Source: Azolla caroliniana
Lineage: Eukaryota > Plantae > Polypodiophyta
Reading direction: 5' to 3'
Assembly (NCBI GenBank): GCA_043228905.1
Contig: JBHGNT010000008.1
Coordinates: 18,476,001 to 18,540,000, forward strand
DNA: 64,000 nt
Under the pieces are notes generated by a model. That model saw only the letters and a program-made list of their open reading frames with translations, was not told the origin of the DNA and searched no databases. Shown in pieces: positions 1-54,271 of the stretch (position 1 is the stretch's first letter; each line of letters begins with the position of its first letter). The position numbers were made by a program, and so were the translations under genes.

Positions 1-2
1 TC

Positions 3-499
3 AACCGACTCATCAAGCTCTTCTCAAACCCAGATGATTGGGTTTTGGATTTGTTCTCTGGCACATGTATATGTAATTATATAATTTTAGTCTCGTTAAT
101 TTGATTAAGTTATAGACTTTCATTATTATTTTGACTTCTGCAATTCTATTTTACGATCAGGTACTACTACAACTTGTGCATTAAAAATGTTCAGAAACTA
201 TGTAGCGACAAGTTAACAACATCAAAATGAGGATCCAAGGAATCTGGGATTGTCCGGATCAAGATCAAGAAGTCGGAGCCAAGCACATCAATGAAATAGA
301 AAGTTTTAAGATAACTTCGAGAGAGCTAATGGAACCTATAGATGAAGAAACAGAGGACCTTGTGGACCTAGAAGATGTAACAGAATCTGAACATATGCAC
401 GGTTCAGCAGAGTAGAGAATCGATGCTATAGAGGACAATTTAGAAGAGTCCATTCATTCAGAGGAACCCACGTTGCTTGACTTGCTTATACTAGATTGA
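3..499 (+). pseudogene. 3' part of a spliced N4-cytosine/N6-adenine (N6_N4_Mtase, beta-class-like) DNA methyltransferase; degenerate and 5'-truncated by the window edge
   Basis: 3-66 translates NRLIKLFSNPDDWVLDLFSGT. GT..AG intron 67-160. From 161 it continues (C/G)TTTTCALKMFRNYVA, then after a frameshift QVNNIKMRIQGIWDCPDQDQEVG plus an acidic tail (ORF 227-415; in-frame TAG 413-415; TGA 497-499). This fits the motif X/I pattern LIxxxSxxxDxVLDxFxGxGTTxxxAxxxxRxxI of N6_N4_Mtase enzymes. Confidence 0.8.
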
Positions 500-525
500 T
501 TTCTATGGCTGTGTATTATTTGAAC

Positions 526-784
526 AATAGTACGTAAAATTCGTGTTCGTCTAGCATAACATTCGTTTTCCTACGTTGGAAAACAAATGCGAATGTTATT
601 CAAACATTCTTGTGTTTTTTTTTGTTTTTTTCCCATTTTTTAGGCTTATTTACTTCATAATAAATAGTTAATCCAAAAGTATGGTGTTTAATATTTATCA
701 TTCTTTGAGGGTGTTTTTCTTACGCGAATGATTGAAACATTCACAAATGCGAATGCACGTATGGTGCGTATGGTTCATATTATG
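526..784. mobile_element. 259-bp non-autonomous hAT element (MITE), family A
   Basis: Perfect 8-bp TSD ATTTGAAC (518-525 / 785-792). Ends resemble CATAGTACG..CATAYTATG. Homologous, in opposite orientation, to 3389-3647. Confidence 0.85.
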
Positions 785-938
785 ATTTGAACGATACTAA
801 ATGTTAGACAGTGACTTGTGACTATTGTTTCATTTGAACACAATTAAAACTTAAAGTTTGAGTTTATTTAACCTTATGCATTTCCTGACTTATTGATTTA
901 TATGGCAAAGTGTATAATTTAAATGGTATTAATGTTTT

Positions 939-1026
939 ACATGTTCTTCAACCTTTCTTTGGAAATTTTGAAAGGGTGTTTATAGATGATTTTGCCATCA
1001 ATAGTGCAAGGATGGGTCATCTAGAA
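939..1026 (+). pseudogene. Isolated ~90-bp Ty3/gypsy reverse-transcriptase fragment
   Basis: Translates HVLQPFFGNFERVFIDDFAINSARMGHLE, the catalytic (Y/F)xDD region of gypsy RT. Confidence 0.6.
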
Positions 1027-1469
1027 ACGATGTGTGTGGATAATCTTTAATGTTTGAATTATGTATAATTTGAAGGGTATTAAATGTTTATCTTGACTTC
1101 TAACTTCTAGAGTTAGACCACTATTAATTTTTAAAGTTTGACATTATTTCACTATTACATTTCTTCACTTGTTGACCATTATGTTTTTCTATAATAATCT
1201 AGTTTGGGGTAGACACATGATTTTCTTTGTAATTGGATAATTAAATGTGTAATCCGGATTCTATACACATGGAAGATGTCAAGTACCATTAGCTGCAATA
1301 ATGTTGGTAATGCATAATTACTATGTTCATATGTAACTTCGAGATGTATTGTGTGTGATTATATTTTAAAATTAGCATCAGTGACATTCTTGGAGTGGGG
1401 TGCTATTTTTATCTTCACCACAATTATGGTTCAAAATTTTAAAGTTGCATGTAATTCCATTCCGTTAAT

Positions 1470-4400
1470 TTAGAATTTACATGTTTCAAATGTCCTGGTG
1501 TTTACAGTAATGTTGAATGCAAATATGATCAATATTCGGAATGCAATTGCTTGTTTTGTGCCATGGAAACCGGGCTTTGATCTAGTTGAAATGTTGAATT
1601 CGGGGCATCATCTAACCTCAATTTCCGAGGTTTTCCCGTGAATCCCTAAGGAATACATCGTTGTACTTCCATCAATCGCAACAAGAATTGGCACGATTCT
1701 TCCACCTTGCGAGGAGGCATTAGAAACAAAGCTAACAGGATACCCATTAATTCGAATATTAGTTTCCTCAATGGAAAATTTACCTACTCATGTACTTTTA
1801 CCTTCACTCACTAGGATTTCGATGTTCATGCAAAAATTGGAGTATGTAGGTATGCCTGGACAATGTTTTTATTGTAAACAGAAAGGCCACATGCTAAAAG
1901 ATTGTCCAAAAAAAGAAGGGATTTAGACCCCAGAATGGTACAAGTAATGTGCATACAGATTGTAACCATGTTAACCCGGATAAGAGTCAACAATAACATC
2001 TAGTTGAGGGAACTGAGAAAGGGGAAAAGTATTCAACCATCCAAGGATGAGATGTGGAGACCAATTGAAAAGAGACACTCAATACCCAATAAGTGCATAG
2101 AATCTAAGGATGCTTAACTAAGTATAGGTCACTATGATGCCATACAGGAATTAGATAACTCTTTGTCTCAAAATGATGTTAAGATATGCCAAATTAGTAA
2201 TATTTCTAAACAATTTACTCCTAGTGGAGAAGAGACTGAATCAATCCATAATCTTGTTATGGCCACTCAGAGTAAAACAACAACAATATCAAGTAAACAA
2301 CATTTGAACTTGAGTAATACATCACCGCCCCTTCACAGATCTATAAAACAATCATCGAGCTTGAGAGGGTTAAATGTGAACTTCATTCGCACAATCCCAA
2401 TAAACTCTCAAGTAGAAAATACTTGTGTTTTTGTAGTCACTCGATGGAATGCCACATATGGGTTTGATTTTTTTGAATTTTTGGGAGACATGGTTGATAA
2501 TGGCAATGCATCAATACGTGTTCATGTTCTTTTCAAGACTATGCATTCTCTTGTAGGATTTTCTTTTCCTTTTTGTGGATATGATAAATAAACACGGGTG
2601 GCAACGGATGTTCAATTGGCTTTTAGACAACAAACATTACACTTCGCAAAATATGTTAATTGTGACAATTTTGGGGAAGTAATATTAAGGGGACTTGAGG
2701 CAACAAATATACAACTTTTGCCAGTATCTGATGTGATGCGGCGAAGGCAAGTGGTTGTTTCCTTAGCTTCTGAGATCCTTCCAAATTGTGGATATACCTA
2801 TATTCATGAGGATGGGTTATCGAAAGTCGAGTATTAGCTAAAGCTCATCATCATTATAGAATGGTACATGATGCGATACCTTTATCATGTTCGATAAGTA
2901 GTGAGCAAGATGGCAATGAGGCCAATCTAGAGCCATTAGCGAAAAACATGAAAATGACGTCACAACAACCTAAGTTTCCTTAAATGCGAGTGATGTCATG
3001 GAATGTTCAAGGGTTAGGGGGGCCCTTATATAGACGATACAAACATTGTCTCCATCAAGAGATTAACAAATGCGTAGTGGGTGGATCCCTAGATTTTCTT
3101 TTAATACAAGAACATCATTTAAATACTTTTAGAATTTCTCGTTATGGTTCTATTTTATCTGGAATCTAGGACATGTTTTTGTCCCCCACAGTAGGCAACA
3201 CGGAAGTTCGTGGTGGGGTTTGTATTTTTGAGAGCTAGATTCCATCCATTATCCAAAAACAAGTGGTTATTCCTAGAAGGGCTCAATATGTTATTATGCA
3301 AGAGGAAGAGATTATATAGGGACTCTTGAATATATATATGCTCCCAATATTGTCTCTGCTCGGCAACAAATTTGGAAAGAATTATTAACATAGTATGAAC
3401 CATACGTACTTCACATGCATTCGGATTCGAGAATGTTTCAATCATTCGAGTATAGTAAATGCCCTCGAAGTATGGTAAATACCATACTTTTGTATTTATT
3501 ATTTATTATAAGGTTTATTTTTTTAAAGTTTAGAAAGTTAAGGTAAAGTGTAAAAAAAACATAGAATGTTTTGATAACATACGCATTTGTTTTCATTTGT
3601 ATGAAAAAGACTGTTTGCCAATGCATTCGAGTATATTACGTACTATGTTGTTAACTATTCTGCCTCCCCTTGATCATTGGTGCATCACTAGTGATTTCAA
3701 CATGCTTGAGGACCCCGTTGATAGAATGGGAGGTAGCTCAACCACGATACATGGCCATGAATTAGCGATGTGGGAACAATTGGGCTTTTCCTTACAAATG
3801 TTTGATGCATGGCACGGTCCTTCGATAGTTCATACAAACACCTCACTTTTGTTTTCAAGATCAGATAGGCATGTAAATGGTACTAATTTTTCTCGTTTGG
3901 ATAGATTCTACGTATCTAGCAAATTTATTTCAGCAACTGGTACAATACATATAATGCAAGGAACTACCTTCTCTAATCATGCTCCAGTTATTCTTTCAAT
4001 CTCGACTCAAACCCTTAAAGAATTTTCCAATCTGAAGATTCCTGAATATCTGTTGTTAGACAATAGCATTTTCTTAAAAGTGGCTGAATTATGGTCTCAA
4101 AAAGATGTTGTACAGGAATCAATGGCTATGCATGTAGCTAATGGCTTACGATGTATTTCAAAAAATTTCAGTTGTAAATCCATAGAGAGGTTTTCTATGA
4201 TACAAGAAAAGGAGAAACGGTCTCGTACTTCATTTGTTTCTCTACAATGATTACAAGAACCTTATCCACATTGTAGTTGGATTGCTAAGAAACTTGGGTT
4301 AGCAAAACAAGAACTTGTTGTATTATTAGAAAAGCATGCAGAATTTCAATATCATCATAGGGCAGCTAATTGGACCCAAATGGGTGATAAATGCACAACT

Positions 4401-6650
4401 GAATTTTTTCATGGAATGAGACCCAATCATAATGCGGTTTCACTCAAACAACTACAACATGAGAATGGAACCATCTCATGTGACCCTCAAGTGATGAGAG
4501 AAATAGCCACACGATACTATTCCAACCTATTATCAGTTGTTTCCTTCTCGGATGAGGATGTAATAAGTCGGTCTTGTGTATGGAATACTTGAGTTCAAGA
4601 ATAACACAATATATGAATATTAGTCTTGAAGACGTTCTTACTTATGAGGAATTGAGTGAGGCATTCAAGGCTTTGCTTAAAAATTGTTGTCCAGGTATGG
4701 ATGGTTTAACCCCAACATTCTTCATTAAATATTGGGACTTGTTCAAAGCATATTTATGTACAACATTCCAACAAATTCTTGGAGAGGGTAATATGCCTTC
4801 ACATTTTATAGAAGGACTAATTTACCTTATCCCTAAATAAGAAGGTCCTTCATTGGACATCAAGAAATGTCACCCGATTAAATGATTGAATACGGTGTAT
4901 AAAATCCTAGCTAAAGCAATTAGTATACGACTTAGTACTATAATGCCTATAGTTATACATCTGACTCAAACATGATTCATTCGGGAAAGGAGCATTTTGG
5001 ATCATGTTTATACGTTTTGGGAATCTGCTGACTTGGCAGCCAAATCTAATCAAAAGTTGGCCATTGTTATGCTTGATTTTGAGAAAGCTTGTGACCGTGT
5101 TGACTGGGAATTTTTACAAGGTGTATTGGCTCGTTTTGGTTTCTCAACAGAATGGATAAAAGGTATTTCTTCCTTATATAATTCTGCACAAAGCTGAGTC
5201 TTACTAGCTGGGAATTATGGACCTTTGTTTTCTATTCTCGATCAGTTCGTCAGGTTGTCCTTTGGCTCCTTTCCTATTTCTGTTTTTTGCTGAGGCAATG
5301 ATTTCTTTTTTGAATGCTGGTGATATTGGTATACAGGGAGTACGCATCCCACTCTCACGTATAGAAGTAAGGGATGCTAAATTTGCAGATGACACTGCCC
5401 TATACTTAAAAAGTGATATGGAAAATCTGCAAAAAACAGAATTGGCCATATCCTGTAAGGCTTCAGGTGCACTTGTCAATTGGAACAAGTCCTTTGCATT
5501 TTGGGTGGGGGATGTAGAGCCTCCTTTATGGAATCCACACCTGCAATTTCGATGGATACCATCAGGTTGCCGACTTCGATAGCTATGGTGTATGATAGGT
5601 ATTGATCTCTCAATGGAAAATCAAGTGGCACAACTCCTATTGTCATTGTAGAAAAAGTTATTCTTATGGAGTTTAGCCAAGCTGTCTTTTGCTAGTTGGA
5701 TTGTAGTTGCTAATTAGGTTTTATTGGCTTCAACATGGTATGTTCTATCATGTTGGATATTCTCCAAGTCATGTATTCTGAAAATACGTAGACTGATTCG
5801 TAATTTCTTGTGGTCTAGTAAAACGAAAGGCAATGCTTGGTCTAAAGTGAAATGGGATGTTATTACCTTACCTCGTTTTAAAGGAGGATTAGGTATTATT
5901 GATCCAGTAGACCAATAAAGAGCATTGTTAAGTAAGTTGCTCGTTAAAGGCTTTACGTTGGGGCAAGAGATATGGAAACTATTATTTCTTGATCGTTGTT
6001 CAGATTGCTCTCCTCGCTTAGGTGCCCCCTGGTCCAAGGATGTCAATTGGATATTTAGGGAAAATTTCTGAGTACCTTTAGCCAATAGATGGGAAGACAA
6101 ATTTATCAGGACATTATTTTCAGCATGGAAACAAGTATTACCTAGTTTGCTTCACAATAAACCTAACCTCAAACATTATGTTGAGTATCTTAGATAAAAG
6201 ATAGTCTAGAACCCGTTTTACACTAAATATGGAAGTGTTCATACATTGCCACTGTTGTCATTACAGTTTTCAGGATTAAAGAAGGAAGTCCAGCCAATAT
6301 GGGAGATACTTAGTACCATTGTATATCACATTTGGAAGGCTCAGTGCTCTTTCATTTTCCATCAACTTAAAACACCACCAGTTGAAGTGGTTTCAAATAT
6401 TTGGTTTGACATAGTTGACATACTTCGAAGGGTCAATGGGATGGTATAGTTGGAGATTCTAAGGCTAAAATTGCTCAACAACATGAGTTTCTTATTATCT
6501 GGATAACTACTCCATTCATGACATCCAATTACGACACTCCTTATTGGCATTTTCAACCTCCGAAATGGTTGTTTCCCCTGCTGATCACATAGAGGTTTAA
6601 AATCTTGTAAAACGTCTTTATAGTAATAACAGGATATCCTCTTTTTAAAA
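1470..6650 (+). mobile_element. Degenerate L1-clade LINE, copy 1 (ORF1 with CCHC knuckle; ORF2 APE endonuclease and RT)
   Basis: ORF1 knuckle GQCFYCKQKGHMLKDCP (~1858-1908). ORF2 starts MRVMSWNVQG at 2984 and contains QEHH, IYAPN, DFN, SRLDRFY, SNHAPV, PGMDG, LDFEKACDRVDW and FADD (~5382). Many stops and frameshifts. Confidence 0.93.
3389..3647. mobile_element. 259-bp hAT MITE (family A) inserted in the LINE endonuclease domain
   Basis: Interrupts ...QQIWKELL|TILPPLDHW. TIR CATAGTATG/CGTACTATG. Degenerate TSD TTATTAA(C)/TTGTTAAC. Same length as, and homologous to, 526-784. Confidence 0.8.
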
Positions 6651-6689
6651 AAATACTACATATCATGTAATCCTACAAGAGATTACATA

Positions 6690-8080
6690 GACTTGAAAAG
6701 AACATGAACACGTATTGATGCATTGCCATTATCAACCATGTCCCCCAAAAATTTCAAAAATTCAAACCCATATGTGGCATTCCATCTAGTGTTTGCAAAA
6801 TCACAAGTATTTTCTACTTGTGATTTTTTCGGGATTGTGCAATGAAGTTCGCATTTATCCTTCTCAAGCTAGACGATCATTTTATAGATTTGTGAAATGG
6901 ATGAGATACATTAAGCAAGTTCAAATGTTGTTTAGCTGACACCGTTGTTGTTTTACTCTCAGTGGGCATAGCAAGGGTATTGATTGAGTCGGTCTCTTCT
7001 CCACTAGGAATAGATTGTTCAGAAACGTTACTAATTTGGCATTTCTGAACATCATTTTGAGGCAAAGAGTTATTGAATTCCTATAAGGCATCATAACGAC
7101 TTATACTTACAAGAGCACCCTTAGGTTCTATGCACTTATTAGGTATTGAGTGTCACTTTTTAATTGGTCTCCACATCTCATCCTTCGCAGGTTGAATACT
7201 TTTCCCCTTATCATCCTCAGAGGGCTCGAACATTTTCCCCTTTCTCAGTTCCCTCAATTAGATGTGATTGTTGACTCTTATCCAAGTTAACATGGTTACC
7301 ATCTATATGCGCATTACTTGTACCATTCTGGGTTCTAAATCCCATGTTATTTTTTGAGCAATTTTCTAGTATGTGGCCTTTCTGTTTACGATAAAAATTG
7401 TGTCCAGGCATACCTACATACTTTAATTTTTGCATGAACATCGAATTCCTAGTGAGTGATGGTAAAAGCACCTGAGTAGGTAAATTTTCCATGGAGGGAA
7501 CTAATATTCGAATTGATGGGTATCTTGTTAGCTTCGTTTCTAATACCTCCTCACGAGGAGGAAGAACCATGTTGATTCTTGCTACGATTGATGGGAGTAC
7601 ACCCATGTATTCCATAGGGATTCACGGGAAAACTACAGAAATCGAGGTCAGACGATGCCCCAAATTCAACATTTTGACGGGATCAAAGCCCAGTTTCCAC
7701 AGAACAAAACAAGAAATTGCATTCTGAATATTAATCATATTAGCATTCAACATTACTGTTGTGAATTCTAAATGATAAAAAGCATGCCCAAGGAATTGAA
7801 CATCAACTATTTTCCCGATCTAATGTTGAAAAGTTGTTTGAAGGAGATCTCTCAAATCTCCTCTATTCAACCTTAAGCCTATAACCGTACACTCTATTGA
7901 GTAGGAATGTAGACGACTTACCTCTCTTTTCAGTATAGCTTCTTCTTCCGGCGTAAAGACGACAGTGAAAGCTAACTATGGTGGAGTTGTCATGGGCGTT
8001 GCGTTAGAGTTCCCCTGGTGTACCGTGACAACCATCTTCCTCCTTGTCTCCCACAACGTTCTCTTCAATGTTCGTTGTCT
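6690..8080 (-). mobile_element. Inverted ORF1 segment of LINE copy 2 (same family as copy 1)
   Basis: The reverse complement of 6690-7780 aligns with ~1470-2540 (ORF 7217-7615 ...YVGMPGHNFYRKQKGHILENC). 7780-8080 adds a DUF4283-like N-terminus (…NRGDLRDLL…VDVQFLGHAFYHLEF). Confidence 0.88.
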
Positions 8081-8100
8081 AAGTAGTATGTAATTTATTT

Positions 8101-11100
8101 ATCCATTAGGTTGCCCAGTTCGGTACCTAGGATGTACGATACGTATTGATCTTTCAATGGAAAATCAAGTGGCACCCCTCCTATCGTCATTGCGGAAAAA
8201 ATTGTTAATATGGAGTTTAGCCAAGTTGTATTTTGTTGGTCGGATTGTAGTTACCAATAAGGTTTTATTGGCTTCAACATGGTATGTTCTATCATGTTGG
8301 ATATTTGCCAAGTCATGTATTTTAAAAATACAGAAACTGATTCGTAATTTCTTGTGGTCCCATAAAACGGAAGGCAATGCTCGATCTAAAGTGAAATAGG
8401 ATGTTATTACTTTACCTCATTCTAAAGGAGGATTAGGTATTATTGATCCAGTACACCAATCAAGAGCATTGTTAAGTAAGTTTCTCATTAGAGGATTTAC
8501 GCCGAGGCAAGAGATATGGAAAGTAATATTACGTGAAAATCCACCACTATGTGCAGATCGTGAGGCTGAACCGCCGGGGTTATGGAGATGGATTTAGGGC
8601 TCATACGCATAACACAAGCAAGATTTACAAATAAGAAACATAGGTGAAACAAAACATTAGTTTATTGCAAAATAATAGATTCTTTTATAATATAAGAATC
8701 AAGTTACAACAGGTTGGATGTGAATATGAAGGATTGTTTATAAAGGAATGGGGGAAGAGAGGTGGCGAAAAGAAGAGAGTGGAATATAGAAGGAGTTTCT
8801 TTGTTGATGATGCCTCTTGATGTTGTTGATCATTCTTCTTCCGCTTTCCAATTGAGTAGAGCTTCCATGTTCTTTCTCCCTCCCCCCTTCTTCTTAAAAT
8901 GAGCTCTTATTATAGGTTTAGGATTTCTTGCTTCCTTTCTTTTTTTTTCTTCCTAAAAGTTTGTCTATATGAGTTGAGTTTCTTTTTATCACTATTTCTG
9001 TTCCGTAACGTTGTCGTGAAGATCCGTCACTATGTCTGGATCGTGAGGTGGAACCGTCGAGGTTCTGAACCGGAAGGATTCGAAGTTTGCACTAGTTTTA
9101 GCGAGAAAGTATTTAAGATAGATTAAAAGAGAGAGATTGAGTTAAGATAGAACGCTTGACTTTAGATTGAGAGAGATTGAAATGGAGAGAGAGATTAAGA
9201 TTGAACCCTTGACTTTAGATTTGAGGAATAAGATATATCATCAATTGGATAATGAATTTTCTTCTTCTTCTTCTTCTTCTTTTAAAAATTTCTTGATTAA
9301 TACATCGCCCCTTTTTTATCTTTTTCATCCACTCTTTTATAGATGCCCCCATGCATATGATGCATGTGAGGGTACAAGACATGCATACAATGCATGGAAT
9401 GCATGTGATGCATGTTTGCCATTTGGCGCTCATGCATTACATGTAATGCATGTTAACCGTGTCACTCATTCAAGCTCTAATATGAGAATTTACATGTGAA
9501 AGTATAATGATACAAAAAACATTTCTAGAGAAATGGCTTAGTGGTAAGTTTACTGCCTCCTATCTTGGAGGTGCAAGGTTCAAGCCTTGCTTGCATCTCT
9601 TTGTATACAAATTTTTACTAGGTTTTTTAGTCTAGATGATTTCATTTGTTTCACACCGAAATCGTTGAGATCAACCTTTCCGATCAATCCATCTATCCGG
9701 TCTATTCGGTCCGCATCCGACCCGGTGGACATGGTTAACATGTAATGCATGTTAACCATGTCACTCATTCAAGCTCTAATATGAGAGTTTTAATTCATGT
9801 GAAAGTTTTAATGTTACAAAAAACATTTCTAGAGAAATGACTTGGCTCAGTGGTAAGTTTATTGCCTCCTATCTTGGAGGTGCAAGGTTCAAGCCTTGCT
9901 TGCATCTCTTTGTATACAAATTTTTACTAGGTTTTTTAGTCTAGATGATTTCGTTCGTTTCACACCAAAATCGTCGAGATCAACCTATCCGATCAATCCA
10001 TCTATCCAGTCCATTCGGTCTGAATCCTTCGGGTTTCGTCACCGAACGGTTCCATCGCCATCCGTCCGGTCCTCCAAAACCATTACGAGTAGTTAAGCCA
10101 CAATTTAGCCCAAGAACATTTTGTGCTCCACACATAGACAAAGGGTAATAAGTTATGGCTCTTCTTATATATTGTGGGATCCTGATTTGTCCTATCTATG
10201 TGGGATATCTCATTGTTTTGTTTTTATCGTCTTCTTCTCAAACTTCACATTCACATAACTTGACATTTAGTTGTCTGCTTCAAATGTAATAAAGTACATT
10301 CGGAAGCTCTTGAAGACATCCATCTTTTCGTACCAAGATATTAAACTAATCTGAAATAGTATCTCTACTATTATTGTTTCATATCGTGTGTGAAGAACCA
10401 CACTCGATTTTGTATGTTCCTCGCAATTTTCACATCATTGCCGAAAATCTTCACGACAACATCAAATCTGACATCCAAGCTATTCTTAGAAAGCTCTTTC
10501 TAGTAGCTTTCTTATGTATATTTCCTTTTGTAATTTGGAAATTAGATGATGAAATTACGAGCTTTTTACTCGACCTTGCTCCTCATATCCACGCCTAGCT
10601 TTTCTTTTTCATCTTTTTTTTCTTTTTCATCTTTTTCTCTACTTTTGTCTACTTTTGAAAATCACTTCTAACTTTTTATCCTTTCATTTATTACTATAGT
10701 TGATTTAACAACATTAGTTTATTTGAACCACTATTTTATTCTCTTTTGAGGGTGGTTTCGCACTATGTGTCGAAAACATCACGACACCGTTGTTCAGATT
10801 GCTCTCCTCACTTACGGCCCCCCTGGTCGAATGATGTAAACTAGATATTTAGGGAAAATTCCCGAGTTGCTTCAGGCAATAAATGGTCCACAAAAAATTT
10901 ATTAGGACATTATTTTCAGCATGGAAACAAGTATTACTTGGTTTGCTTCCCAATAAACCCAACCCCAAACATTATATTGAGTATCTTAGACAAAGGATAG
11001 TTTGGAACCCATTGTTTACAACAGTAGATAGTTTAGTGTTGAGTTCTAGACAATGGTTATCGTGGGGAAAAATGACAGAAGGTTCCGCGAAAACAGTTTG

Positions 11101-18090: not shown

Positions 18091-18783
18091 TCAACATCGG
18101 TGGGGCGTGATTCGAGAGTTGTTGTAACAAGTTTCTCGGAAGGAGACATTTGCAGTTTGGAAGGAGACGATGTTCTTGCTTGGCGATAGGAGACATTCGC
18201 TTATGTGACACCAATCCAAACCGTGGAGGCATGGGGTGTACAACACTTTTGGTGGGAGGACCCAAATGTAAATTGAGTGCTCACTATATTTTTTCTTGAT
18301 GTTACACACGAAGGTTCCGAGGCAGGGCGATGTAGAACCATTGAAGCCAAGGGATTTGTCGTTGCATACTTCGAGGTTTGGGGAACCTAGATCTTCCCAC
18401 GTTTCGAAGGAGAAAAGGGATAGTGATGCTCCAGTGTCGATCACTACTATTAGAGGTACATTGTCGGCGAAGCATGGTAAGTGTGTCGTCATGTCAATAG
18501 AGGTGCGTTGTGGTCTCTTACAAGCCACCGCCCTACTCCCTTGTTCATAGAGTTTGAATTGTTCCGGGAAGTCCACCTCTGTCGAGGTTTGCCCAGTGGT
18601 CGCATCCTCTTCCTGGCGCGTGATTCGTTGCCCTAGGCCTGCGTCTCTTACGTCTGTCTGTTTTCGTCGAGTTACGAGAGTGGTGACATTAAAACACGAG
18701 ATCGTGTCTCCATCCTCATCGTGACACTTTGTACCAATAGGGTACATTGCATCGGTCGTGGCGAGGGCGTGCACCCAATTCAT
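18091..18783 (-). CDS. Retropepsin-like aspartic protease domain 2
   Basis: VPLIVVIDTGASLSLFS (DTG at 18438-18430), followed by ...PCLHGLDWC. Confidence 0.82.
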   Translation of the reverse strand: MNWVHALATTDAMYPIGTKCHDEDGDTISCFNVTTLVTRRKQTDVRDAGLGQRITRQEEDATTGQTSTEVDFPEQFKLYEQGSRAVACKRPQRTSIDMTTHLPCFADNVPLIVVIDTGASLSLFSFETWEDLGSPNLEVCNDKSLGFNGSTSPCLGTFVCNIKKKYSEHSIYIWVLPPKVLYTPCLHGLDWCHISECLLSPSKNIVSFQTANVSFRETCYNNSRITPHRC

Positions 18784-18942
18784 CTCTGACGCATCAGAGG
18801 CTACGGATTGGTCTTCTCTTTCTCCAGCGTTCTCAGCCTTAGGATTAGTGAATTTTTTAGGAAACAGCTAACCGCTAGCGAAGATTTGGACTGTCTTTGT
18901 AGGGTTACAATTCTGGAGGTTAGTCTCGAACTCGGTGGTTTT

Positions 18943-19360
18943 TTACCAGTCCTCCACGAGAGGGTTACCTTCTTGTTCGTGCACCTTTTGTGTGTATGCT
19001 TTGATGCGGAAGGTTTTGTTGTTTTTGCGCATGTAGATTGTATCATTCCCAAAATCCATGACGAGGCGGCTTACATGTAGGAATGGTCTCCCTAGTAAAC
19101 ACTCGTAAGCCACATGATTGGATGATCTTGTGACGACAAAGGTGAGATTGAACTCGACCCCGTGGATAGTGAAGTGGTGTGGAGGGATCATGCCTTCTGG
19201 CCGTTGGATAGACCCATCTTCCATTCGGAGTTTGACGTCCGAAGGAAACATTTTTGGGCTCCCCCACTTACACCAACCTTCATAGCTGACTATGCTTACC
19301 TCCACTCCAGTGTCGATGATCGCGTCATACGTCGTGCCGTTGACGCAGACGGGAAGAGTG
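18943..19360 (-). CDS. Retropepsin-like aspartic protease domain 1
   Basis: Frame upstream of ORF 18943-19305 reads LPVCVNGTTYDAIIDTGVEVSIVS (DTG at 19314-19306), followed by ...ECLLGRPFL. Confidence 0.85.
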
Positions 19361-20444
19361 AAACTAGTGTCGTCGCTCTTGAAGTGAGCTTCACATATAT
19401 CGACCGGCGTTCCTTAGGGTCGTTTGGAGACTGTGGTCGTATGAGGGAGGAGTGTGTGTATCTTTTCTCCATAACCCGCTGACAGGCCTCCTTTGAGGCG
19501 CCGAAGGACGCCGTGCCATGGTTGGATGTCGAGTTGGAGCAACTCTTCAAGTGTGAACTCTATTTCCTTGGCGAGTATAGGTTGTAGTTGGGGGTTGTCA
19601 GTCACAAAGGTGCCGGTGTAGCTCTGTACTTCGCGTAATGTGAGTCATAATTTCAAATTTAATATTTGTTGGAGCAAGACTGTGTTGACTTCTTTGATTG
19701 GGGTAGATTGGGAGATGGGAGTGTCGGTTGGTGTTACGATGTGGGGGGGTGTACTCGTGTGTTGGGGTGGAGAATTTACCCATTCTTCGAGCTGGTTTAA
19801 GTTTAGGCTCGGAAGACTAAGCGATCTTTCGCACTGTTCGTGTCGGATGAGTTTGATGTACTCTTCAACCTTTTGTTTTTTAGCTACTGGGTTTGGGCAT
19901 GCTGCTAGGTGTGCCGGCAGCTCTTGGTTAGGGTTGACGGGTATTGTTTCTACGTCTCCCTTCGGTTCTTGTTCTTGCTTTGAGGCCTGCGTGGATGCAT
20001 TTTTTTTAGATTTTTGTCTCTTATGCGTAGTCGTGGGGGGGCCTTGGTCGTGACACTTTAAGTTATGAGTTATTCTTTGAGCTCGTGTGATGACGTTGGT
20101 GCCAACCGTTGATGGTACGATAGATAATAGGTTTGCGCCAATCCTTTTCTTTTTTTCTGGGCAATCGGGTACTAAGTGATCTTTACAACACCCTAGGCAT
20201 GATGCTTCTCTTTGGAACCACTCGATAACGTCCTGTGACTGTTGAGTGAGACTTTGCACCGGTGGTTGTGGGGTTGTTTCGAGTGAGGGTTGTCGTGGTC
20301 ATTGTGCCATCGGGTTGTAGTATTCATGTTTGGTTGGGCACTCGCTAACCATGTGTGGGCCTTGGTAATTGAAACATTTCAATTCCGGCCTCCTTAGACC
20401 ACTATTGTTGCGATATCCCGTCGACGGCCCCTGTTGTTCTCCTC

Positions 20445-21623
20445 TCAAGACGTAGACTGGTATTTGGTCGCCTTCGAAGTCGACAAAGTGGGAAAGCACC
20501 TCTTCTTCAACACCATACCCCCGGTATGCTTCATATTCGGGGGTGCCCCCCCAACTTGAGTTTGGTTATTGGTGGTATATTCTAGTTCAGTGAGGCGAGT
20601 GCCAATACGCGGTAGTGGGGGTTGTTGGGGAAGTATTGCTGGTAGTTGTGGGCTGCTAAACGGTGGAGGTGAGTGTGGGTGCTCTACCATTGGTGTTTGG
20701 TTATACCTTCTGTTTGGGGCTTGCCAACAATTCTCTTGAGAATGCATCACGAAAGCTTTGCACCACTTACAGTATTGCGGTCGTCGCTGGTGGAGGAGGG
20801 GGCACTCATGCCCCGTGTGATGGCCATGGCATACTGTACACCTTACATTTTCTCTTTGGGCATATGCTTGGTGTCTTTCTATACGGGGTGGTCTCGGTGG
20901 CATGGGTAGAGTGGGGTCTGAGGGCTTCTCACGGTTGTTCGTAGGTGCTTGAGTGGGTATCCATAACCCGCTCATTAAATCCTCGAAGGTCATCACTACC
21001 GTGCAAGCTTCAGCGAACGACCGACACATCCTCACAATCAGGAAGTTTTGGAGCGTCGGATCGAACAACCCATTGATGAAGCGGCTCATCAATTTGTCAT
21101 CTGACATCTTGTCGCTCGGGCTACAATGATGGTGCAAGCTTTTCGTGCGGCGTATGTAGTCCCTGACCGTCTCGTTCGCTTCTTGCTTGAGGGTGAAAAG
21201 TTGGCCGATCGGGTTCCATTTATTCCCTTGACGAGCGAAGTTTATCAAGAAATCTTCAATGACGCACCCGAAGTCCGCGACGATGTCTTCATTCAAGGTT
21301 CTAAACCAAATTCCGGCTTGTTCATCAAGTGTAAGCCCAAATGCGGCTACTTTGGTGGTCTCTGTGAGGGGTTCATAAGCCGGACATATCTGTTTGAACC
21401 TCTCGATGTGATCATAGGCGTCACCGAAACCGAGGAAACGGGGTACTAGTTTAGAAATGGAAGCACTCTTCCCACTGTCATTTGTAGGGTTTCTCGAATG
21501 GTCCGTAGGTGCTCGCTCTTTTTCCATCAATGCCACGAGGGTTTGGATGGATTGTAACGCTAGTGCGAGTTCGGCGATTGGGGATGTCGAGGCAGTTTGC
21601 TCGAGTGTAGGGGTCGTGTCCAT
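20445..21623 (-). CDS. Gag (retrotransposon capsid plus Cys/His knuckles) of the nested LTR element; part of a longer interrupted polyprotein
   Basis: 392-aa ORF with PRFLGFGDAYDHIERF, AGIWFRTL, LKQEANETVRDYIRR, RFINGL, and the knuckles CTVCHGHHTGHEC and CKWCKAFVMHSQENC. Further knuckles follow (CFNYQGPHMVSEC, CLGCCKDHLVPDC). Confidence 0.85.
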   Translation of the reverse strand: MDTTPTLEQTASTSPIAELALALQSIQTLVALMEKERAPTDHSRNPTNDSGKSASISKLVPRFLGFGDAYDHIERFKQICPAYEPLTETTKVAAFGLTLDEQAGIWFRTLNEDIVADFGCVIEDFLINFARQGNKWNPIGQLFTLKQEANETVRDYIRRTKSLHHHCSPSDKMSDDKLMSRFINGLFDPTLQNFLIVRMCRSFAEACTVVMTFEDLMSGLWIPTQAPTNNREKPSDPTLPMPPRPPRIERHQAYAQRENVRCTVCHGHHTGHECPLLHQRRPQYCKWCKAFVMHSQENCWQAPNRRYNQTPMVEHPHSPPPFSSPQLPAILPQQPPLPRIGTRLTELEYTTNNQTQVGGAPPNMKHTGGMVLKKRCFPTLSTSKATKYQSTS

Positions 21624-32308: not shown

Positions 32309-35300
32309 TGTTGGTTGGATATGGTTAGATTGTGGAAGAATGTGTATGAGGACCTTCAAGATGATATACAGCAAACAACACAGATATACAACAAGAAGAG
32401 AGACAGAAGATGGACACAGTTCCAGAGCTTCAATGGAAGTTCTAATTCTCTCACTTTGTAACTCTTACGCTCCAAGACTACTTTACAATGTCAGGGTTGT
32501 GCTTATATACTCAAGCCCTAACTCAAAGACCTATTCACACTTAAGATACAAAGTGGAAGGAGTAGGCCTTTAATGCCAACAAACTCCCCAGTAAAAAGGC
32601 TACTCTTTCCTATGTATACAACTGATTTTGGGGTTATCTCCCTTGTAAACCTAGATTACAAGTCTAATCTTAAGTTACAAGTATACGTACAAGTCTGTCG
32701 GCGTATGGCCAAATTGGTAGAGGTAAAGTCGAGATCTAGCCTAATTCGACAAGTTATCTGGACCGTATATCGTTCGGTTCTAACTTTCGACCTCTAGTCG
32801 ATCGTATGTAGTTCGGTTCTGACTTTCGACCTCTAGTCGATCGTCTGCTTTCTACTCGTGCTCGGTCATGTGCTCCTCACGAGATCCTCGATCTATCTTC
32901 AGGTTCATTCACCCTTCGATCGGTTCCTCTCTAGTCGGTATCCTCACTCGGTGTTGAATCTTCGGCCTCTTGACATTCTAATTCTTTTGACTTTGCCTTT
33001 TCGGCTCATCCGATCAGGTCAGTCTTTCACTTACCTTCTCCTCCTCATTTGACTCTCTTCTGCTCGGTCTCTTGTCATAGTCCCATCACTGTCCTTAGTG
33101 GTTTGAAACGTTGTTTTAGGAGTGGCTTCGTCAGGCAATCGACGATATTCACCTCGGTGTCGATCTTCCGTACAAGCTCCCGGATATGATGAAACTGCAC
33201 TTGAATGTGTTTCGTCTTTGCATGACAGATTTGATTTCGAATGAGGTGTATTGCGCTCTAAGAGTTGCAAAAGATGGTTGGCGTTGGATGGTTGATTTGT
33301 CTTGTCGCCAAGAAGTTGGGTGACAATCGTGCAGCCAGATGGCTTCCTTCGTTGCCTCCGATGTTGCTATGTGTGGAGAAATCGATGCGGAATAGATCAC
33401 AATAATCGAACTACGCGCTGAAATACGAATCACATCACAATGCGAGAAAGACAAGATAAATGACTATACACATAGATTTATGTGGAAACCCTAAAACGGG
33501 AAAAAAACCACAGGTGAACAAATTCTTCACTATACAAATAGTGGATACACAATGCAGAGAAGATTACAACACTCTGTCGAGTGTATCAGCCACACAGGGC
33601 TCTTCGCATTTGCTATTACACACACAGCTATGGTGCGGCTCTCACTTCTCTCTCACTCTCTACACTACTTCCGTTTTCTGCACAGTGTTAATGTTTGCCC
33701 TAGTTGCATATATACTTACACAACTTTTTGGTTATTTACATACGGGGCCCTCATGGGGCGCACACTTAGACTATTTACAAATATAGTCTCCTGAGTTGGC
33801 TATTTTCACAATTCTGGTTTTGGCCGAGGCCGATACATCAACTCAGCTCCTGTCTTCTGACTCTTTGACTGTCGGCTTTCCGAACAGTCGGATCATCCTC
33901 CCACTAGAGGGACATATTCCCAACACTATGTACTCAGCCTCTGTGGTAGAAAGGGACGTGCACTCTTGAAGCTTGGACCTCCATTATGGCGCCACCACCA
34001 TAGGTGAAAAGATAACCAGATGTCGACTTCCGATTGTCCGCATTTCCCACATAGTCTGAGTCGGTATAGCCTTCGACTTCGGTTGGATTTGCCGATCTGA
34101 AAGTCAATTGTACATCTGCGGTTCCTCTTAGATACTTGAAGATCTGCTTGACGGCCTCCCAATGCTTCCATCCTGGGTTTGACATGTACTGGTTGATGAT
34201 CCCTATGGCGTATGCAAGGTCGGGTCAGGTCGCCACCATAGCGTACATGATACTTCCTACCGCCGATGTGTAGGGTATCTTTCCAATGAGCTTTCTCTCC
34301 TCATTTGTCGAAGGAAAGTCTTTGACCGATAATTGAATTGACGTCGAAAGTGGATTCGATGTTGCGCATTCTCCATATTGAAGCGCCTCAGCACCTTTCG
34401 AATGTAATCGGATTGGGAGAGTCGGAGAGTCTTTGTCATCTGATTTCACTCGATCCTCATGCCTAGTATGTGTCGGACTTGTTCGAGTTCCTTCATCGCA
34501 AATTTATCATGAAGGCTCCACTTTAGTTTTCCGATCTTGCTCGATTGCTCCCTACAATGAGCATGTCATCGACATATAGAATCATGTAGATACGAGACTC
34601 CTCGGCCAATTTTCGAATATACATACATGGGTCGGAGTCAGATTTGTGGTAACCAAGCTTCATGATGTAGGAGTTGAAATTCTGGTACCACATCCTCAGC
34701 GCTTGTTATAAGCCGTAAAGGCTTTCCTTTAGTCGATATACAAGGTGACTTTCCTCCCCCGTCGTCGTGATGCCTACTAGTTGAGACATATAAATGTCTT
34801 CTTCCAAGTCTCCATGTAGGAATGTCGTCTTGACATCTAGCTACTCGAGCTCTAGGTTTTCAGTCACCACAACCCCCAAGTAGGAGTCGAAGGGTGGTCA
34901 TCTTGACTACTGGTGAGAATATCTCGTCGTAGTCGACCCCATGTTCTTGTTTGAATCCCTTGGCGACAAGTTGAGCTTTGTATTTGGGCTTCTCTGAGTC
35001 AGATACATGTTTGTATGTGAAGATCCATATGCAAGGTAGTGGCTTCCTTCCAGCTGGTAATTCGACCAGCTCCCATGTTTGATTCTAATGAATCGAGTCC
35101 ATCTCAAATTTCATGGCTTGTAGCCATGTCTCAGCATCCGACATGGTTGTAGCTTACTCATAAGAGCTTGGTTCTCTTGCGTCCGTGTAATTGATGTAGT
35201 CAAGGCCCGGTTGATAGAACTTTGTCGACCTTCAAACCTTGCCCAGATCTCCTGGGTGTCGATGTGTTCAGTTCGGATTCTTCGATCATCGTTGTTGGTT

Positions 35301-37380
35301 TATCTGTATTTCTTGAGTCATCTTCAGGAATTCCTTTTTGATGATTCGCCCCTGCAATAGGATTTCATCAATGTCAAATCATCCTCCCTTTTTCAAGATT
35401 GATTGACGGATTGGTTGGTGCCTTGGTCGGTTCTGTGCGACCTTTCGGTACCTTGGCTTGATTGGGGGATTTGGTCATTTCGACTTTGTCTCTTTCACCT
35501 CTTTTCAATCTCTTAGTCGAATCTATTTCGATTGGTGGACCTCTTGCCGATTCTGATTTGCTAGCGGGACCGTTGGCTTGGTTTTCTTTGACTATTTGTC
35601 GAATTTCCGATTCAGCCCGGTGGGTCGGTCCTTCTATGACATCTTTGTCGATTTCGAAGGAAACATTTTTGCCAACTATTTTCTACTGGTTCCGTCTAGA
35701 GAGAATATAATCTTCATTGAAGACTACGTCACTACTCTGGATCAATTTCCGGTTCTCTAGGTCCCACAACCTATAGCCGAATTCCCCATCGGTTCCATAA
35801 CGGAGAAATATACACTTCAGTGCATGGGGTGCCAACTTGATCCTTTCGTCCCTAGGGATGAATGCATAGGCTTCGCATCCGAATATACGAAGTCTGTCAT
35901 AGGTTAGTTGTTTGCCTGACCTAGTGCCTGTGGCACTTCGAGCCGCATTGCCCTCAACGGTGATAGATTTTTCAAATAGACGGTCGTCTGTAGTGCCTCG
36001 GCCTAGAATTCCAGCTTTAGTCTAGAGTGTTGGAGCATTGTCGCCACCCTCTCCTGGATCGTTCGGTTGAGCCGTTCTGCCACTCCATTCGGCATGGGTG
36101 TGTAAGGGACAGTTTTTGGTGTCGGATCCCTTTGTTGGAGGTACTGTTTGAAGGCTCGGGAGCTGTATTCACCTCGATTTTCGGATCAGAGTGTCTTCAC
36201 TCAGTATCCCAATCGGTTCTCCACTTCAGCTATCCATTGAGTGAAGACCTCGAGCACTTCGTCTTTCGTCCTAATTGACTAGGCCTAGACCTTCCATGCA
36301 CAGTCATCTATGAATGTGATGAAGTAACGGGAACCTCCTAGTGATATTTCGGGCATCGGCCCACATATATCTGTGTGAACCAGTTCTAGGGGTTGATGTA
36401 CCATCTCTTAGTGGGGGAGTGTGGACTTCGGGTCTGTTTCCCGTAACAACAATGCTCGTAGAAGTTCACCTTTGTCTGGAGCTCCGGGATGTAGTTGATC
36501 GCCATCAACCAATCAAATCCGGCTTGAGACATATGGCCGAGTTGGCCATGCCATAAGTTTGTCCCATGATTCAGTTATGTTCACAACCCCTTCTCGACTG
36601 ATTGCCATTAATGGATACAAGTTATTGTACTTGCATCCATTTCCTATCTTCATATTTCCTCGACTGATCATCCATGATGACTCATTGAGAGTCGTTTTGT
36701 ACCTGGCTTCGGCTAGCATGCCGATGGAGACCAGACTCCTCTTCAGCGCGGGTACATGCTGGACTTGGTGCAGGGTGATAGTATTGCCATTTGGCAATTG
36801 GATGGGGACCTCTCTGATCCCTGCGATTGCGCACTCTTGCGTGTTGCCTAGTTGGACTGTGTCGTTGGCTCTAGCCGAACAGTTTGAAAACCATTCGATA
36901 TTTGGGGTCACATGAAAGGTTGCGCCAGAGTCCAATAGCCACGTTTATGCGTCTTGTGCACTTTATAGGACTTCTCCAATAATCGAGTCCTCTAGAGAGA
37001 GAATTTCTCCTAATCGAGAGTCGGCAACATTGATTTGGTTGTCATCTGGAGAATGGTTCGAGTCGGATCGTCCTGAGTTCCACTCAAATCGTCGACGTTT
37101 CTCCTTTCTCTTGATTGACCAGCAATCAGAAACATTGTGACCAGGTTTTCTGCAGTGGGTGCAGAAATCACATGATCAACTATTCCTCAACTTCGACTAT
37201 TGTCGGTCTCCCCTCTTTCTTGGTCAACTAGTGTTCCGACCGATTCTTTCGACTTGTTCTCTCGATCGACTTCGTTGAGTGGTGGGGTTCTGTCGACCCA
37301 TCAACGGTAAGTCCCATCGATTTTCGCCAAATGTCCTCGATGAGGACTTCTCCGATCATCTCATCTAGATTTAGATTCGG
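32309..37380 (-). mobile_element. 5'-truncated degenerate Ty1/copia retrotransposon
   Basis: Domain order knuckle (CTHCRKPGHNVSDC ~37120-37170), protease (WLLDSGATFH ~36935), integrase (RYFITFIDD, LxSENRGEY, GVAER), RT (DVKTTFLHGDL, LYVDDML, YTSAVGSIMYAM), RNase H (YTDSDY..RKSTSGY, EAEYIA). 3' LTR TGTTGG..CCAACA at 32309-32581 with adjacent PPT. Confidence 0.92.
33372..33925. mobile_element. 554-bp solo LTR inserted in the copia RNase H
   Basis: TG..CA ends with perfect 5-bp TSD CTATG (33367-33371 / 33926-33930). Splits EAEYI|ATSEATKEAIW. Confidence 0.9.
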
Positions 37381-40076: not shown

Positions 40077-41567
40077 TTATGTGCATATAGGACACTGAAT
40101 CAATCCATTCTCATTACATTCTGAGCACCTCAAGACACGATGATTGCCTTCGATTCGCACTTTACGACTTCCATTGCATTCTAAACAAGGCACGAAACGG
40201 ACACCACCACATCCATCACACACATCCCCCTTGTTCACATCTTTAGGAAGGCCTTCCAAAAGCTCACTCAGTTTGCCATCTTCATGAAGTTTCCCGACCT
40301 CATCTATACCTCCAATGTATCGGCCCTTGATAAAGATCCTCGGCACCGAAACAACCTTTCCCATGAGCTCTCGTAGCTCATTCAGAAACTCAAGATGCAT
40401 CGACACATCACGCTCATCCATGATCACATCAAAGTTCCGGAGAATGCCCCTCGCAACATTGCAGTCCTCGAACGTCTTGCGAATCCCACGAAGTGTTGTG
40501 GTGTAGATGACAACCTTGTTGTGACCACTAGGGGGACACTTTGCTTCGAAACTCTCCAATGGATCGTAGATTCTTCTGTCCAGCCCTCTAATGGGGCTCT
40601 TGTGCCGCAAATCCCAATCTCTTCCCGAGAGATATTGTAGATCTTCTTCATAAGATGCAACGAGGTCGGGATCAAACAAGGGGCTATTTGGTTCAGTTGA
40701 AACTAGATTGCTCGAAGATAATCCCGATGGGTTCATTTTTGCCGAAGGCGGTGTATATGGGATTGAATACTTTTTCATCATCACATGTGGTTTGGATGGA
40801 CACAACTCCTTCATGGGCACAATGGCATGATCAATCGAGCGAAGAAGAAACCGATTGCTTGCGATGCTTTCCTTTCTTAGAAGAAGAGGGCTTCTTGTCG
40901 GCATTAATGCTGTATTCGCAATGTTTGGGATTGAATTCTCTTTACCCAATTCTTCTTCAACATTGTTATCCATCTCATTCGATTCGAGCCCGCCCACATT
41001 CTTAACTATTCTTAGCTTTTTCTTATCAGGCCTCTGATTGTTGATTTGTCTCCGCTTCGGCTTCATTGAGGTAGAGAAGGTTGTTTGAGAAGCCAATTCA
41101 TGGATAGATTCTTCATGAATTTGTGATGATAATGATGATGATGATGATGCAGCTTCTTCAAGACCCATCATCATGTCTCCCACATTAATGCTCTCTGAAA
41201 TTGCATACTCTGGTGAACCCAAATTCATCCTAACATTTGATTTATAGGCTGCATCCATCTGTGTCTTCTTTTGAATAGCTTCTTCATCCATTCCTAAATT
41301 ACTCAGTTTACCATACATCTCTGTCAATGTCCCTGTTTCCACCCCTTTCTCATTCATCTTCTTCTGTGAAATGATGCTGCTCTTGATTGGTGAATCGACT
41401 TTCATGAAACCATACGAAGTTGAGGTGAGAGAAACGCAATGGCGATGGTAGTACTGAACAGAAGAATTGGTAGAATTCATCTTTGGTGAAATTTGAACTG
41501 GACAAATACACAATCCATCATCCACTGATGCCTGTTCCCTGAGTAATTTGGAGGATATACAGCCCAT
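40077..41567 (-). CDS. Glutaredoxin-like protein with C-terminal four-CxxC zinc-finger (plant GRX-like class, At5g39865/At3g28850-type); single exon, 496 aa
   Basis: VVIYTTTLRGIRKTFEDC, ERDVSMH, VPRIFIKGRYIGG, CDGCGGVRFVPCLECNGS..RCSECNENGLIQCPIC. The MGC N-terminus fits a myristoylation/S-acylation pattern. Confidence 0.95.
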   Translation of the reverse strand: MGCISSKLLREQASVDDGLCICPVQISPKMNSTNSSVQYYHRHCVSLTSTSYGFMKVDSPIKSSIISQKKMNEKGVETGTLTEMYGKLSNLGMDEEAIQKKTQMDAAYKSNVRMNLGSPEYAISESINVGDMMMGLEEAASSSSSLSSQIHEESIHELASQTTFSTSMKPKRRQINNQRPDKKKLRIVKNVGGLESNEMDNNVEEELGKENSIPNIANTALMPTRSPLLLRKESIASNRFLLRSIDHAIVPMKELCPSKPHVMMKKYSIPYTPPSAKMNPSGLSSSNLVSTEPNSPLFDPDLVASYEEDLQYLSGRDWDLRHKSPIRGLDRRIYDPLESFEAKCPPSGHNKVVIYTTTLRGIRKTFEDCNVARGILRNFDVIMDERDVSMHLEFLNELRELMGKVVSVPRIFIKGRYIGGIDEVGKLHEDGKLSELLEGLPKDVNKGDVCDGCGGVRFVPCLECNGSRKVRIEGNHRVLRCSECNENGLIQCPICT

Positions 41568-42074
41568 ACTTGAACCAAACTAAAGATGGTTCCCGTGATC
41601 TACAGCCCAAGAATTCACTGTTATTGGAAATACAAACGGATCTCGAATGAATAACATATGCATAGATGCACACGAGAAACGTATAAAATAGCCGACTTAA
41701 AACAAATCTTGAGCTATGTAAGATTTACCTCGATGAAAATTCTCCAGATTTGAGCTATGTCAGAGCGAAACGATTTCCACGATTCATTCGGTATATATTT
41801 ATAAACACTTAATACAGGGGAGTTGAAAACAAGTAGATTTTTGGCTGTTTTGTTTTGGGCAGAATCAGTGATTTGCAAGGGGCTTAGATGCAGAAATAGC
41901 AGATGGGCAGTTGTTGGCAGAATTCATAGCAGATGGCCTTAATCTTCATGAGTAGGAGGGGGACTATGTGCTCTGTTTCTATAGTACTTTCTATTCTATG
42001 CACACTCTGCAGAGCTTCTTCTCCCATATCTCTGCCATGCGAACAAAACCCTAATATTCAGAAATGCTACAAAG

Positions 42075-42116: not shown

Positions 42117-42317
42117 CCCAATCAGAAGTATGATCAAAATGAATGGGATGTTTGTTTGTGAGGGAAAAAATGAATGAAGTTTTGAAAAAGAGCGAGAAAA
42201 ACAAGAAAAAAAAACAAAAAGGCTGCAAAAAAAATTAAAAAACAGGTAAAAACCATTCATTATTATTATTATGAATGAAAATCACAACGGCCCTTTTTGA
42301 GAATCGAGTGTATGTGA

Positions 42318-42800
<483 letters not shown>

Positions 42801-43146
42801 TATATCTATACATATCTATATCTGAATCTATATCTTGTATGTGTATGTGTATATCATATACATATGTATGTGTTTTCTTTGTGTCAAAAGGAACCCCTTC
42901 ACAACAATCATGTTTATATGATATGCCTATAGAGTGCATGCATGCATATATGTATGTCTCTCAAAGTAATTTTTGTCCAACCGTCCAAAATATGCGTTTG
43001 GTTGAAAGGGCTCAGGTCTAGATCTTTCCCAATATCTTGTCATCTCATAATATGAACTTTCAATGTGAACCGGCTTATCCGTATTACCAATTGCACGAGA
43101 AGTTGTTTATAAAATCACTTTCAATATCATTGTCGTTGTGTTATTG

Positions 43147-51700: not shown

Positions 51701-52377
51701 CACTCATTTGCAATTCTTCAAGGGTCTCTGCAGTTTCGTTGTTGCACTGTTTAACTTGAATGTTGCATGTGGTTCGGTAAGGAAAATGCACTGGAACTTG
51801 GTGCATATGTAAATGTATTCTTCACATGCTGATGAAGAGTAAATGTGTGCTATGGATTCCTTAATAATGTCTATGGTCTTTCGGTGCTTGTCCCAAGTTC
51901 TTCGGATGCTGTGCTGAAGGATGGATTTCTGAATATGCTACTTGCAAGTAGAATTGATTGTTAGAAGTCGGGAGACTTTATAATGCAAACATGTTTGTCT
52001 ACTCTTGGAAATTCAAGGATATGTTTTTATGTTATTGAGAAAGCATCAGTCTATATAAACAGTTAAGCTACAAATTCTAAAGCTCTTCCTAGGACAACCA
52101 TTTCACTCTTGTTCTGCATGCTATAGGACTGAGATTAAATTTCTTGATGTTTTTCAGGCTTAGGAGTGCCACGCTCGAGAAGCGGAATTTAAAAGCATTT
52201 ATTGCACCTAGATTCTATTGTGGGAAAAGTGCCGATAAGCAGCTAAAACCTCATGATGCCAATAAGTTGAAGTACATTAGAGATACTGCCCTCAACAATT
52301 TTGAGCAATGCTTTAGACAGCTTTATGCTCGAGTACAAGATTATCGTGAGCTCATGGCCATGAAACGAGACATTTGA
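48782..52377 (+). CDS. 7-exon, ~447-aa putative organelle-targeted nucleic-acid-binding protein (At3g52170-like HTH, low-complexity linker, RRM-like domain)
   Basis: Exons 48782-48827, 49845-49950, 50141-50648, 50818-50895, 51195-51374, 51486-51691 and 52158-52377; all GT-AG and frame-consistent (1344 nt). Motifs RRSKDEK..FVERFKASNDGKLPGITAVRKEIGGSY and VFRISNLP..SEESVRALC..VDVQF. Confidence 0.85.
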
Positions 52378-54125: not shown

Positions 54126-54271
54126 GTGAGTTTTGTGTTTGGTCTAAGGCCCCACAAAAATGGTGGGTTTTGGAAGGCTATGGATATGTTGTTGTGGGCG
54201 ATTTGTATGTTGGGCGATTGTGAAGAGAGAGAGAGAGAAATAGAAAGGATTATGGAGGGATTCTGTGAAGA

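Follow-up and report, generated by a model that had tools for sequence, protein, structure and literature searches.

Why should a fern genome carry a fragment of a prokaryotic-type DNA methyltransferase gene interrupted by an intron? The question is posed by the first 499 bases of a 64,000-nucleotide stretch of Azolla caroliniana DNA (hereafter, the window), and the answer is that they form the final 1.5 exons of an accessory gene that belongs to a transposon and not to the host. That the sequence represents the dead 3' end of a ParB-methyltransferase gene carried by a transposon is virtually certain; the anatomy of the element, its gene model, the order and conservation of its motifs and the lesions of the window copy are all directly observed. 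The features concerned, in window coordinates, are:

1..66, plus strand: closing part of exon 4 of the ParB-methyltransferase gene, covering the motif X region and the beginning of motif I, from the PF01555 match; last base G>T relative to the family
67..160, plus strand: phase-1 GT-AG intron of 94 bp in the second Gly codon of FxGxG, from the sequence and relatives
161..499, plus strand: last exon, with the rest of motif I, motif II and an acidic tail, native stop at 497-499, from the sequence and family contigs
500..1478, plus strand: 3' non-coding part of the transposon, 80-85% identical to loci L008, L015 and L016
526..784, no strand assigned: unrelated, very high-copy miniature element inserted in the window copy (summed depth 7,500-85,000 in three DNA runs)
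1477..1502, no strand assigned: final 26 bp of the 37-bp right terminal inverted repeat, matching the family terminus
1503..6650, plus strand: decayed LINE-like retrotransposon, flanking DNA outside the element that begins right after the terminus, from RT-like fragments, with the end point set by reading

The only Pfam match of bases 3-65 (21 aa) is PF01555, at E 1.2e-4 and 22.5 bits, under the gathering score of 26.7. The full exon 4 of a complete relative, locus L013, matches the same profile at E 2.2e-9 (38.1 bits), and the window exon shares 95% amino acid identity with it; the motif X/I signature of PF01555 enzymes claimed in the first-pass annotation is thereby upheld. So is the 94-bp intron, which is plain in the sequence (78% A+T) and lies at the same site in relatives. 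Two alternative donors, GC at 61 and GT at 73, would likewise leave the join open; the donor at 67 is the choice of the family, G|GT..AG being found in 27 of 42 junctions (41 loci and the window) and a GT donor in 39 of them, with a family intron length of 77-109. Intron identity to the window is 56-61% in three distant copies, against 60-84% for the adjoining exon pieces. All 21 candidates retrieved with the tail frame are close relatives; 15 were inspected, of which 13 begin with intron-derived residues and have the same exon entry point, while two begin further in.

Scanning of metagenome contigs yielded 56 loci of the family. Window positions 1-1478 track the family sequence apart from the insertion at 526-784 and some indels, with identity over 1-395 of 74% to L013 and 84% to L008, L015 and L016. 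The same terminus is seen in 23 of the 56 loci, with 22 different flanks, which bears out the suspicion in the annotation that the gene is multi-copy and transposon-borne; a recognisable terminus is missing from 11 of the 27 loci that have at least 1100 bases past the gene. Contigs near-identical to the window locus have a depth of 8-16 and the summed exon depth is about 3,000-8,700 (three runs), suggesting hundreds of copies, though summed depth is no true copy count. The window begins at about position 6505 of L013, and the rest of this copy is expected to occupy some 6.3 kb upstream; neither transposase nor palindrome was found within the 64 kb of the window.

An 8-bp direct repeat flanks the inserted miniature element at 518-525 and 785-792, which would fit a hAT-type MITE. 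That 526-784 might be part of the transposon was considered and rejected: family contigs skip it. A second copy, 72% identical and in opposite orientation, lies at 3389-3646; the miniature element is about 258 bp long, with inverted repeats.

The annotation had asked whether an element with terminal inverted repeats and a transposase encloses the gene. Both are present in L013, and of the right repeat 26 bp survive in the window. L013 is a whole element, 7,594 bp between 37-bp terminal inverted repeats that are 97% identical (180-216 and 7737-7773). Its minus strand carries an 897-aa ORF with a DUF7869 domain (E 1.7e-52; Atlas score 0.95) and three Asp-bearing motifs, which may mark a DDD transposase of the Sola1 clade. 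Head-to-head with this transposase gene, on the plus strand, is a gene of five exons whose frame is open over 935 aa; among the splice combinations tested two give open frames, of 935 and 937 aa. The element is likely to be a Sola1-type DNA transposon, an assignment that draws on the Ectocarpus parallel discussed below and on the motifs of that clade. The transposase is whole in L013 and L053, both collapsed contigs, and fragmentary in L046, all in one set of assemblies. L013, a collapsed contig of coverage 111, is the sole locus with both ends and thus with target-site flanks, and no duplication shows in them. In the passage cited, PMC10741241 defines the Sola superfamily by a 4-bp target-site duplication. 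We note also that L046 (5199-8471) is an internally deleted derivative retaining the left end, the transposase fragment, a 12-copy palindrome array and the last exon.

How badly is the window copy damaged? At base 66 it has T; in two DNA runs the family reads G there in 1638 of 1708 and in 1753 of 1869 depth units (about 95%), and so do 34 of 41 loci; splicing at 67-160 places a Cys codon at the position of the second Gly of motif I. Seventeen bases after 207, present in family contigs, where they keep the frame and the acidic residue of motif II (followed by Lys in 45 of 50 loci), are deleted, and the resulting frameshift runs into a stop at 214-216. Codon 413-415, Gln in the family, is a stop; a contig of depth 16 matches window 250-548 with one difference, which suggests that this stop is genuine and not an assembly error. 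All three changes differ from the state of most of the family and count as lesions, just as had been proposed from the sequence of this copy. SAM motifs I and II, intact in the family, are broken here: judged on its sequence, the window copy can no longer yield the enzyme, because motif I lacks its second Gly and the frameshift removes motif II. The insertion at 526-784 and an incomplete end add to the damage: some subterminal DNA, about 180 bp, has gone from ahead of the right terminal repeat. The window copy itself is a fossil.

In the L013 gene model motif IV, DIPY, lies at residue 655 and motif I, FSGTG, at 816. The order IV-TRD-I is that given for the beta class in PMC7544214, so the inference of beta-class order made from the window alone was correct. 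The accompanying expectation of an SPPY or DPPY motif upstream was not: relatives carry DIPY instead. Among 162 aligned stretches, 133 cover motif IV, of which 52 have DIPY and 75 D-x-P-Y, and none of the 133 has DPPY, SPPY or NPPY; eroded forms include DIPD (11/133), DIPH (8/133) and DLPR (6/133). The first Pro of the consensus (D/N/S)PP(Y/F/W) is thus replaced in all relatives. The residues of motif IV named as functional in the relevant part of PMC7544214 are Asp, the second Pro and Tyr, and DIMT1 is described as active with NLPY (PMC8463865), so loss of the first Pro need not abolish catalysis. No stop interrupts the domain in 13 loci, several of which are near-duplicates, and all of these keep DIPY, YQKP, FSGTG and EK. 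Median dN/dS among open-frame copies is 0.053 for exon 3, with 18 pairs usable out of 55, and 0.045 for exon 4, with 38 out of 78, in rows that were selected for open frames and with most pairs saturated; exon 1 provided only 2 usable pairs of 28.

A contiguous Ginkgo relative helps to place the enzyme. It matches PF01555 at E 7.6e-18 (profile 50-219), and among solved structures it comes closest to the 6mA enzymes M.RsrI, M.MboIIA and CcrM (E 2e-6 to 5e-6), as against E 0.35-0.9 for 4mC enzymes; on these sequence comparisons the product is more likely to be 6mA than 4mC. The family shares with the three 6mA enzymes the IV-TRD-I order, FxGxG and an acidic motif II, and differs from them in having DIPY rather than DPPY, a fused ParB domain, introns and a transposon as carrier. 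The catalytic exon (exon 3) alone matched neither PF01555 nor a methyltransferase structure. Searches of PDB sequences with exon 1, exon 3 and the transposase gave nothing useful, and those with exon 4 reached beta-class enzymes at E about 0.1 only. None of 574 candidates from a word-index search with the catalytic exon was a longer protein of the kind sought, and observed/expected counts of motifs gave no sign of a target site.

What is fused to the methyltransferase? The annotation had recommended looking for a chromatin-reader domain; the fused domain is instead a predicted ParB fold. A model built from exon 1 had low quality (pLDDT 42, with 4.8 as the highest ParB Z), and folding was repeated on the domain alone, residues 212-460, with a deeper alignment of 16 rows (pLDDT 80). 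The top eight rows of the VIA comparison with this model are all ParB/Srx folds (PadC, Z 9.8, rmsd 3.3 with 100 residues aligned; KorB, 8.4; pNOB8 ParB, 8.1), and Foldseek places Noc and ParB first, at E 2e-4 to 1e-3. The N-terminal domain is accordingly predicted, from the model, to adopt a ParB/Srx fold; the helical part that follows it gives weak HTH-like matches (Z about 3.5). The ParB motif includes an Arg, part of the arginine patch for CTP; the corresponding motif in the family is GGSHS or GGGH(T/C/Y), without Arg. The ParB-like region of L013 (4516-5313) also resembles fungal DUF3723 clusters (Atlas score 0.96), which may point to a broader group of mobile ParB-like proteins in eukaryotes.

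Between the two divergent genes of L013 lies a palindrome with a 23-bp core and a free central base. Palindromes are present in 10 of the 56 loci, always upstream of exons of the methyltransferase gene, and in L046 there are 12 copies, many about 150 bp apart. In the subfamily palindromes L001:7, L002:1-75 and L035:45 both arms have changed together with symmetry kept, as would be expected, on sequence grounds, of a symmetric binding site or a hairpin. Each arm has a CG, kept in most copies. The variants of L001, L002 and L035 could be paired with differences between the subfamily proteins.

The gene is not confined to Azolla. A profile of the catalytic exon gathered 151 representatives, and the 30 that were looked up include relatives, matched by the sequence of that exon, from Chara braunii (5), Adiantum nelumboides (5), Riccia sorocarpa (4), Ginkgo (2), Ceratopteris (1) and Diphasiastrum (1). 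The 13 open-frame loci group with the Ceratopteris protein (100/99) in a tree that is unrooted, lacks a prokaryotic or algal outgroup, excludes the window copy and is silent on donor or direction of transfer. Pattern-seeded searches, which bar close relatives only, found none among 237 stretches from viral contigs and 299 from prokaryote genomes; phage methylases match at best at E 1e-6, with 23% identity over most of the domain. With close viral and prokaryotic relatives lacking and phage matches weak, a prokaryotic origin is old; the conserved spliceosomal introns together with this lack support the earlier view of an integrated, spliced gene. Among the relatives P0061, P0120, P0134 and P0151, one Chara gene model consists of two tandem ParB-methylase units, and three form a clade with DLPR in motif IV which, to go by that sequence, is probably inactive.

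Is such an element new, as the annotation supposed in writing of an undescribed system? The same layout and the same self-marking hypothesis have in fact been published for Sola1-1_Ec32 of Ectocarpus, and similar genes for red-algal Plavaka elements. As described in PMC12477816, Sola1-1_Ec32 has a gene for a ParB-like and N4C/N6A methyltransferase protein opposite the transposase, for which the authors propose self-modification, citing similar proteins in green and red algae. It has in common with the fern element this opposite-strand gene and termini that start AAC; it differs in its host, a brown alga, and in size (21.5 kb, 282-bp repeats and 1104 aa, against 7.6 kb, 37-bp repeats and 935 aa), and the likeness is one of described layout and domains. 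The Plavaka (EnSpm) elements PAG2 and PAG3 are reported to encode a PF01555 methylase and a ParB-like protein and to carry inverted-repeat arrays, with self-binding proposed (bioRxiv 10.1101/2025.02.11.637652); unlike the fern element they have separate genes (methylase with SET, ParB with 2OG oxygenase) and a different transposase. DIRS and LTR retrotransposons carrying DAM domains have a prokaryotic-type adenine methyltransferase proposed to favour their own activity; these are retrotransposons, and neither ParB nor Sola is mentioned in that account (bioRxiv 10.64898/2026.05.21.726589). ParB-HTH-fused Dam enzymes of chlorophytes and chytrids, and few 6mA enzymes of land plants, are reported in the relevant part of PMC4738411.

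Marchantia DN4MT1 and bdelloid N4CMT are, in the accounts consulted, likewise eukaryotic spliced or nuclear genes of prokaryotic beta-class type, but they are host genes that write 4mC, DN4MT1 with TSPPY and no extra domain, N4CMT with a chromodomain. With DIPY in motif IV and no SPPY, DPPY or NPPY the family is unlike DN4MT1 or a standard 4mC writer; its ParB fusion and its location inside terminal repeats set it apart as well. Searches of the open full-text literature turned up no description of such an element from a land plant. The fern element is thus of a kind predicted in algae, where self-marking is a hypothesis, and the window holds a dead copy of its conserved accessory gene.

How might such a protein work? 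On the reading that we consider most likely, it would be a cis-acting accessory factor that helps the element stay active or times its movement. By analogy with the recognition of parS by ParB, a dimer would recognise the symmetric 23-bp palindromes between the divergent genes; binding would bring the enzyme to its own element, whose DNA it would mark with 6mA; and the mark, more tentatively, might keep both genes open against host 5mC silencing, or gate transposition. For this mechanism as a whole, a Sola1-type element whose ParB-fold/beta-class fusion binds its own palindromes and likely writes N6-methyladenine on element DNA, we put the chances at about even. A broader version is more doubtful: that a streptophyte-wide transposon lineage, from Chara to ferns and Ginkgo, may have borrowed a ParB-fold clamp from prokaryotes, set it on a parS-like palindrome array and used the attached enzyme to write 6mA and defeat host silencing. 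Were it true, land plants would gain a real, localised source of DNA 6mA. A conserved and abundant ParB-methylase transposon in ferns, with relatives across streptophytes and in the model fern Ceratopteris among them, offers a candidate enzyme together with a candidate site, and shows where the mark might be sought.

The main competing explanation, though an unlikely one, is that the methyltransferase domain is non-catalytic and acts as a DNA-binding or scaffolding module, for example in shielding the palindromes or helping to pair the ends. The constant replacement of the first Pro of motif IV and the eroded motifs among relatives would fit this, as would reports that eukaryotic TE DAMs produced no 6mA in E. 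coli (bioRxiv 10.64898/2026.05.21.726589) and that DIRS1 methyltransferases were judged likely inactive (PMC4738411); yet Asp, the second Pro, Tyr and the SAM motifs are invariant in the 13 open-frame loci, D-x-P-Y extends from Chara to ferns, and the DIMT1 precedent (PMC8463865) speaks for activity. The enzyme might on the other hand write N4-methylcytosine, like DN4MT1 and N4CMT, perhaps on the palindrome CpG so as to block 5mC. PF01555 spans both marks and the CG of each arm is mostly kept, but motif IV begins with Asp, as opposed to TSPPY in DN4MT1, and 4mC enzymes score far below 6mA enzymes against the Ginkgo relative, so that we regard this as very unlikely.

Dam controls the transposition of IS10 and Tn5, a precedent for an active enzyme with some other target: DNA of the element that has been excised or freshly replicated, or its RNA, in timing transposition, or host DNA at large. 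The beta class does include RNA and non-specific methylases, according to the part of PMC7544214 cited; the ParB-fold fusion, and a palindrome array that persists even in the non-autonomous L046, argue rather for targeting of DNA in cis, and we hold these other targets to be distinctly unlikely. That the gene might be a host gene, a TRM11/THUMP-type RNA methyltransferase or bacterial contamination is hardly credible any longer, being largely refuted. Weak UPF0020 matches in two relatives are what it has in its favour. In TRM11/THUMP enzymes motif I comes ahead of motif IV and a THUMP domain is present; the exons of L013 gave no THUMP match, and their beta order, IV then I, is the opposite. Terminal repeats with 22 different flanks, conserved spliceosomal introns, the absence of relatives from the 237 viral and 299 prokaryotic stretches and phage matches of 23% identity also weigh against this reading.

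The rest of the window contains repeats and probable host sequence. In the LINE-like flank a zinc knuckle (PF00098) lies at 1642-1923; the stretches 1504-2000 and 7261-7759, inverted with respect to each other and 87% identical, are both copies of the ORF1 region with the zinc knuckle, and a further decayed LINE-like piece is seen at 8094-8520. LTR-retrotransposon remnants occupy 18094-21623 and 33929-36944, both on the minus strand; Pfam identifies Retrotrans_gag (PF03732) at 20448-21623, and Copia-like pieces beyond it were read from the ORF list. A long low-complexity TA/TG-rich simple repeat at 42275-42929 yields spurious ORFs. Exon-like frames of a probable host gene lie at 49998-54607 (plus strand), with a weak RRM match (E 0.05) at 51486-51809. 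On the minus strand at 40080-41579 is a 500-codon frame with Glutaredoxin and GRXCR1/2 C-terminal domains. It points to a fern as the likely host, its best named matches being in Ceratopteris (77%) and Adiantum (74-75%), then Ginkgo (69%) and Diphasiastrum (63%).
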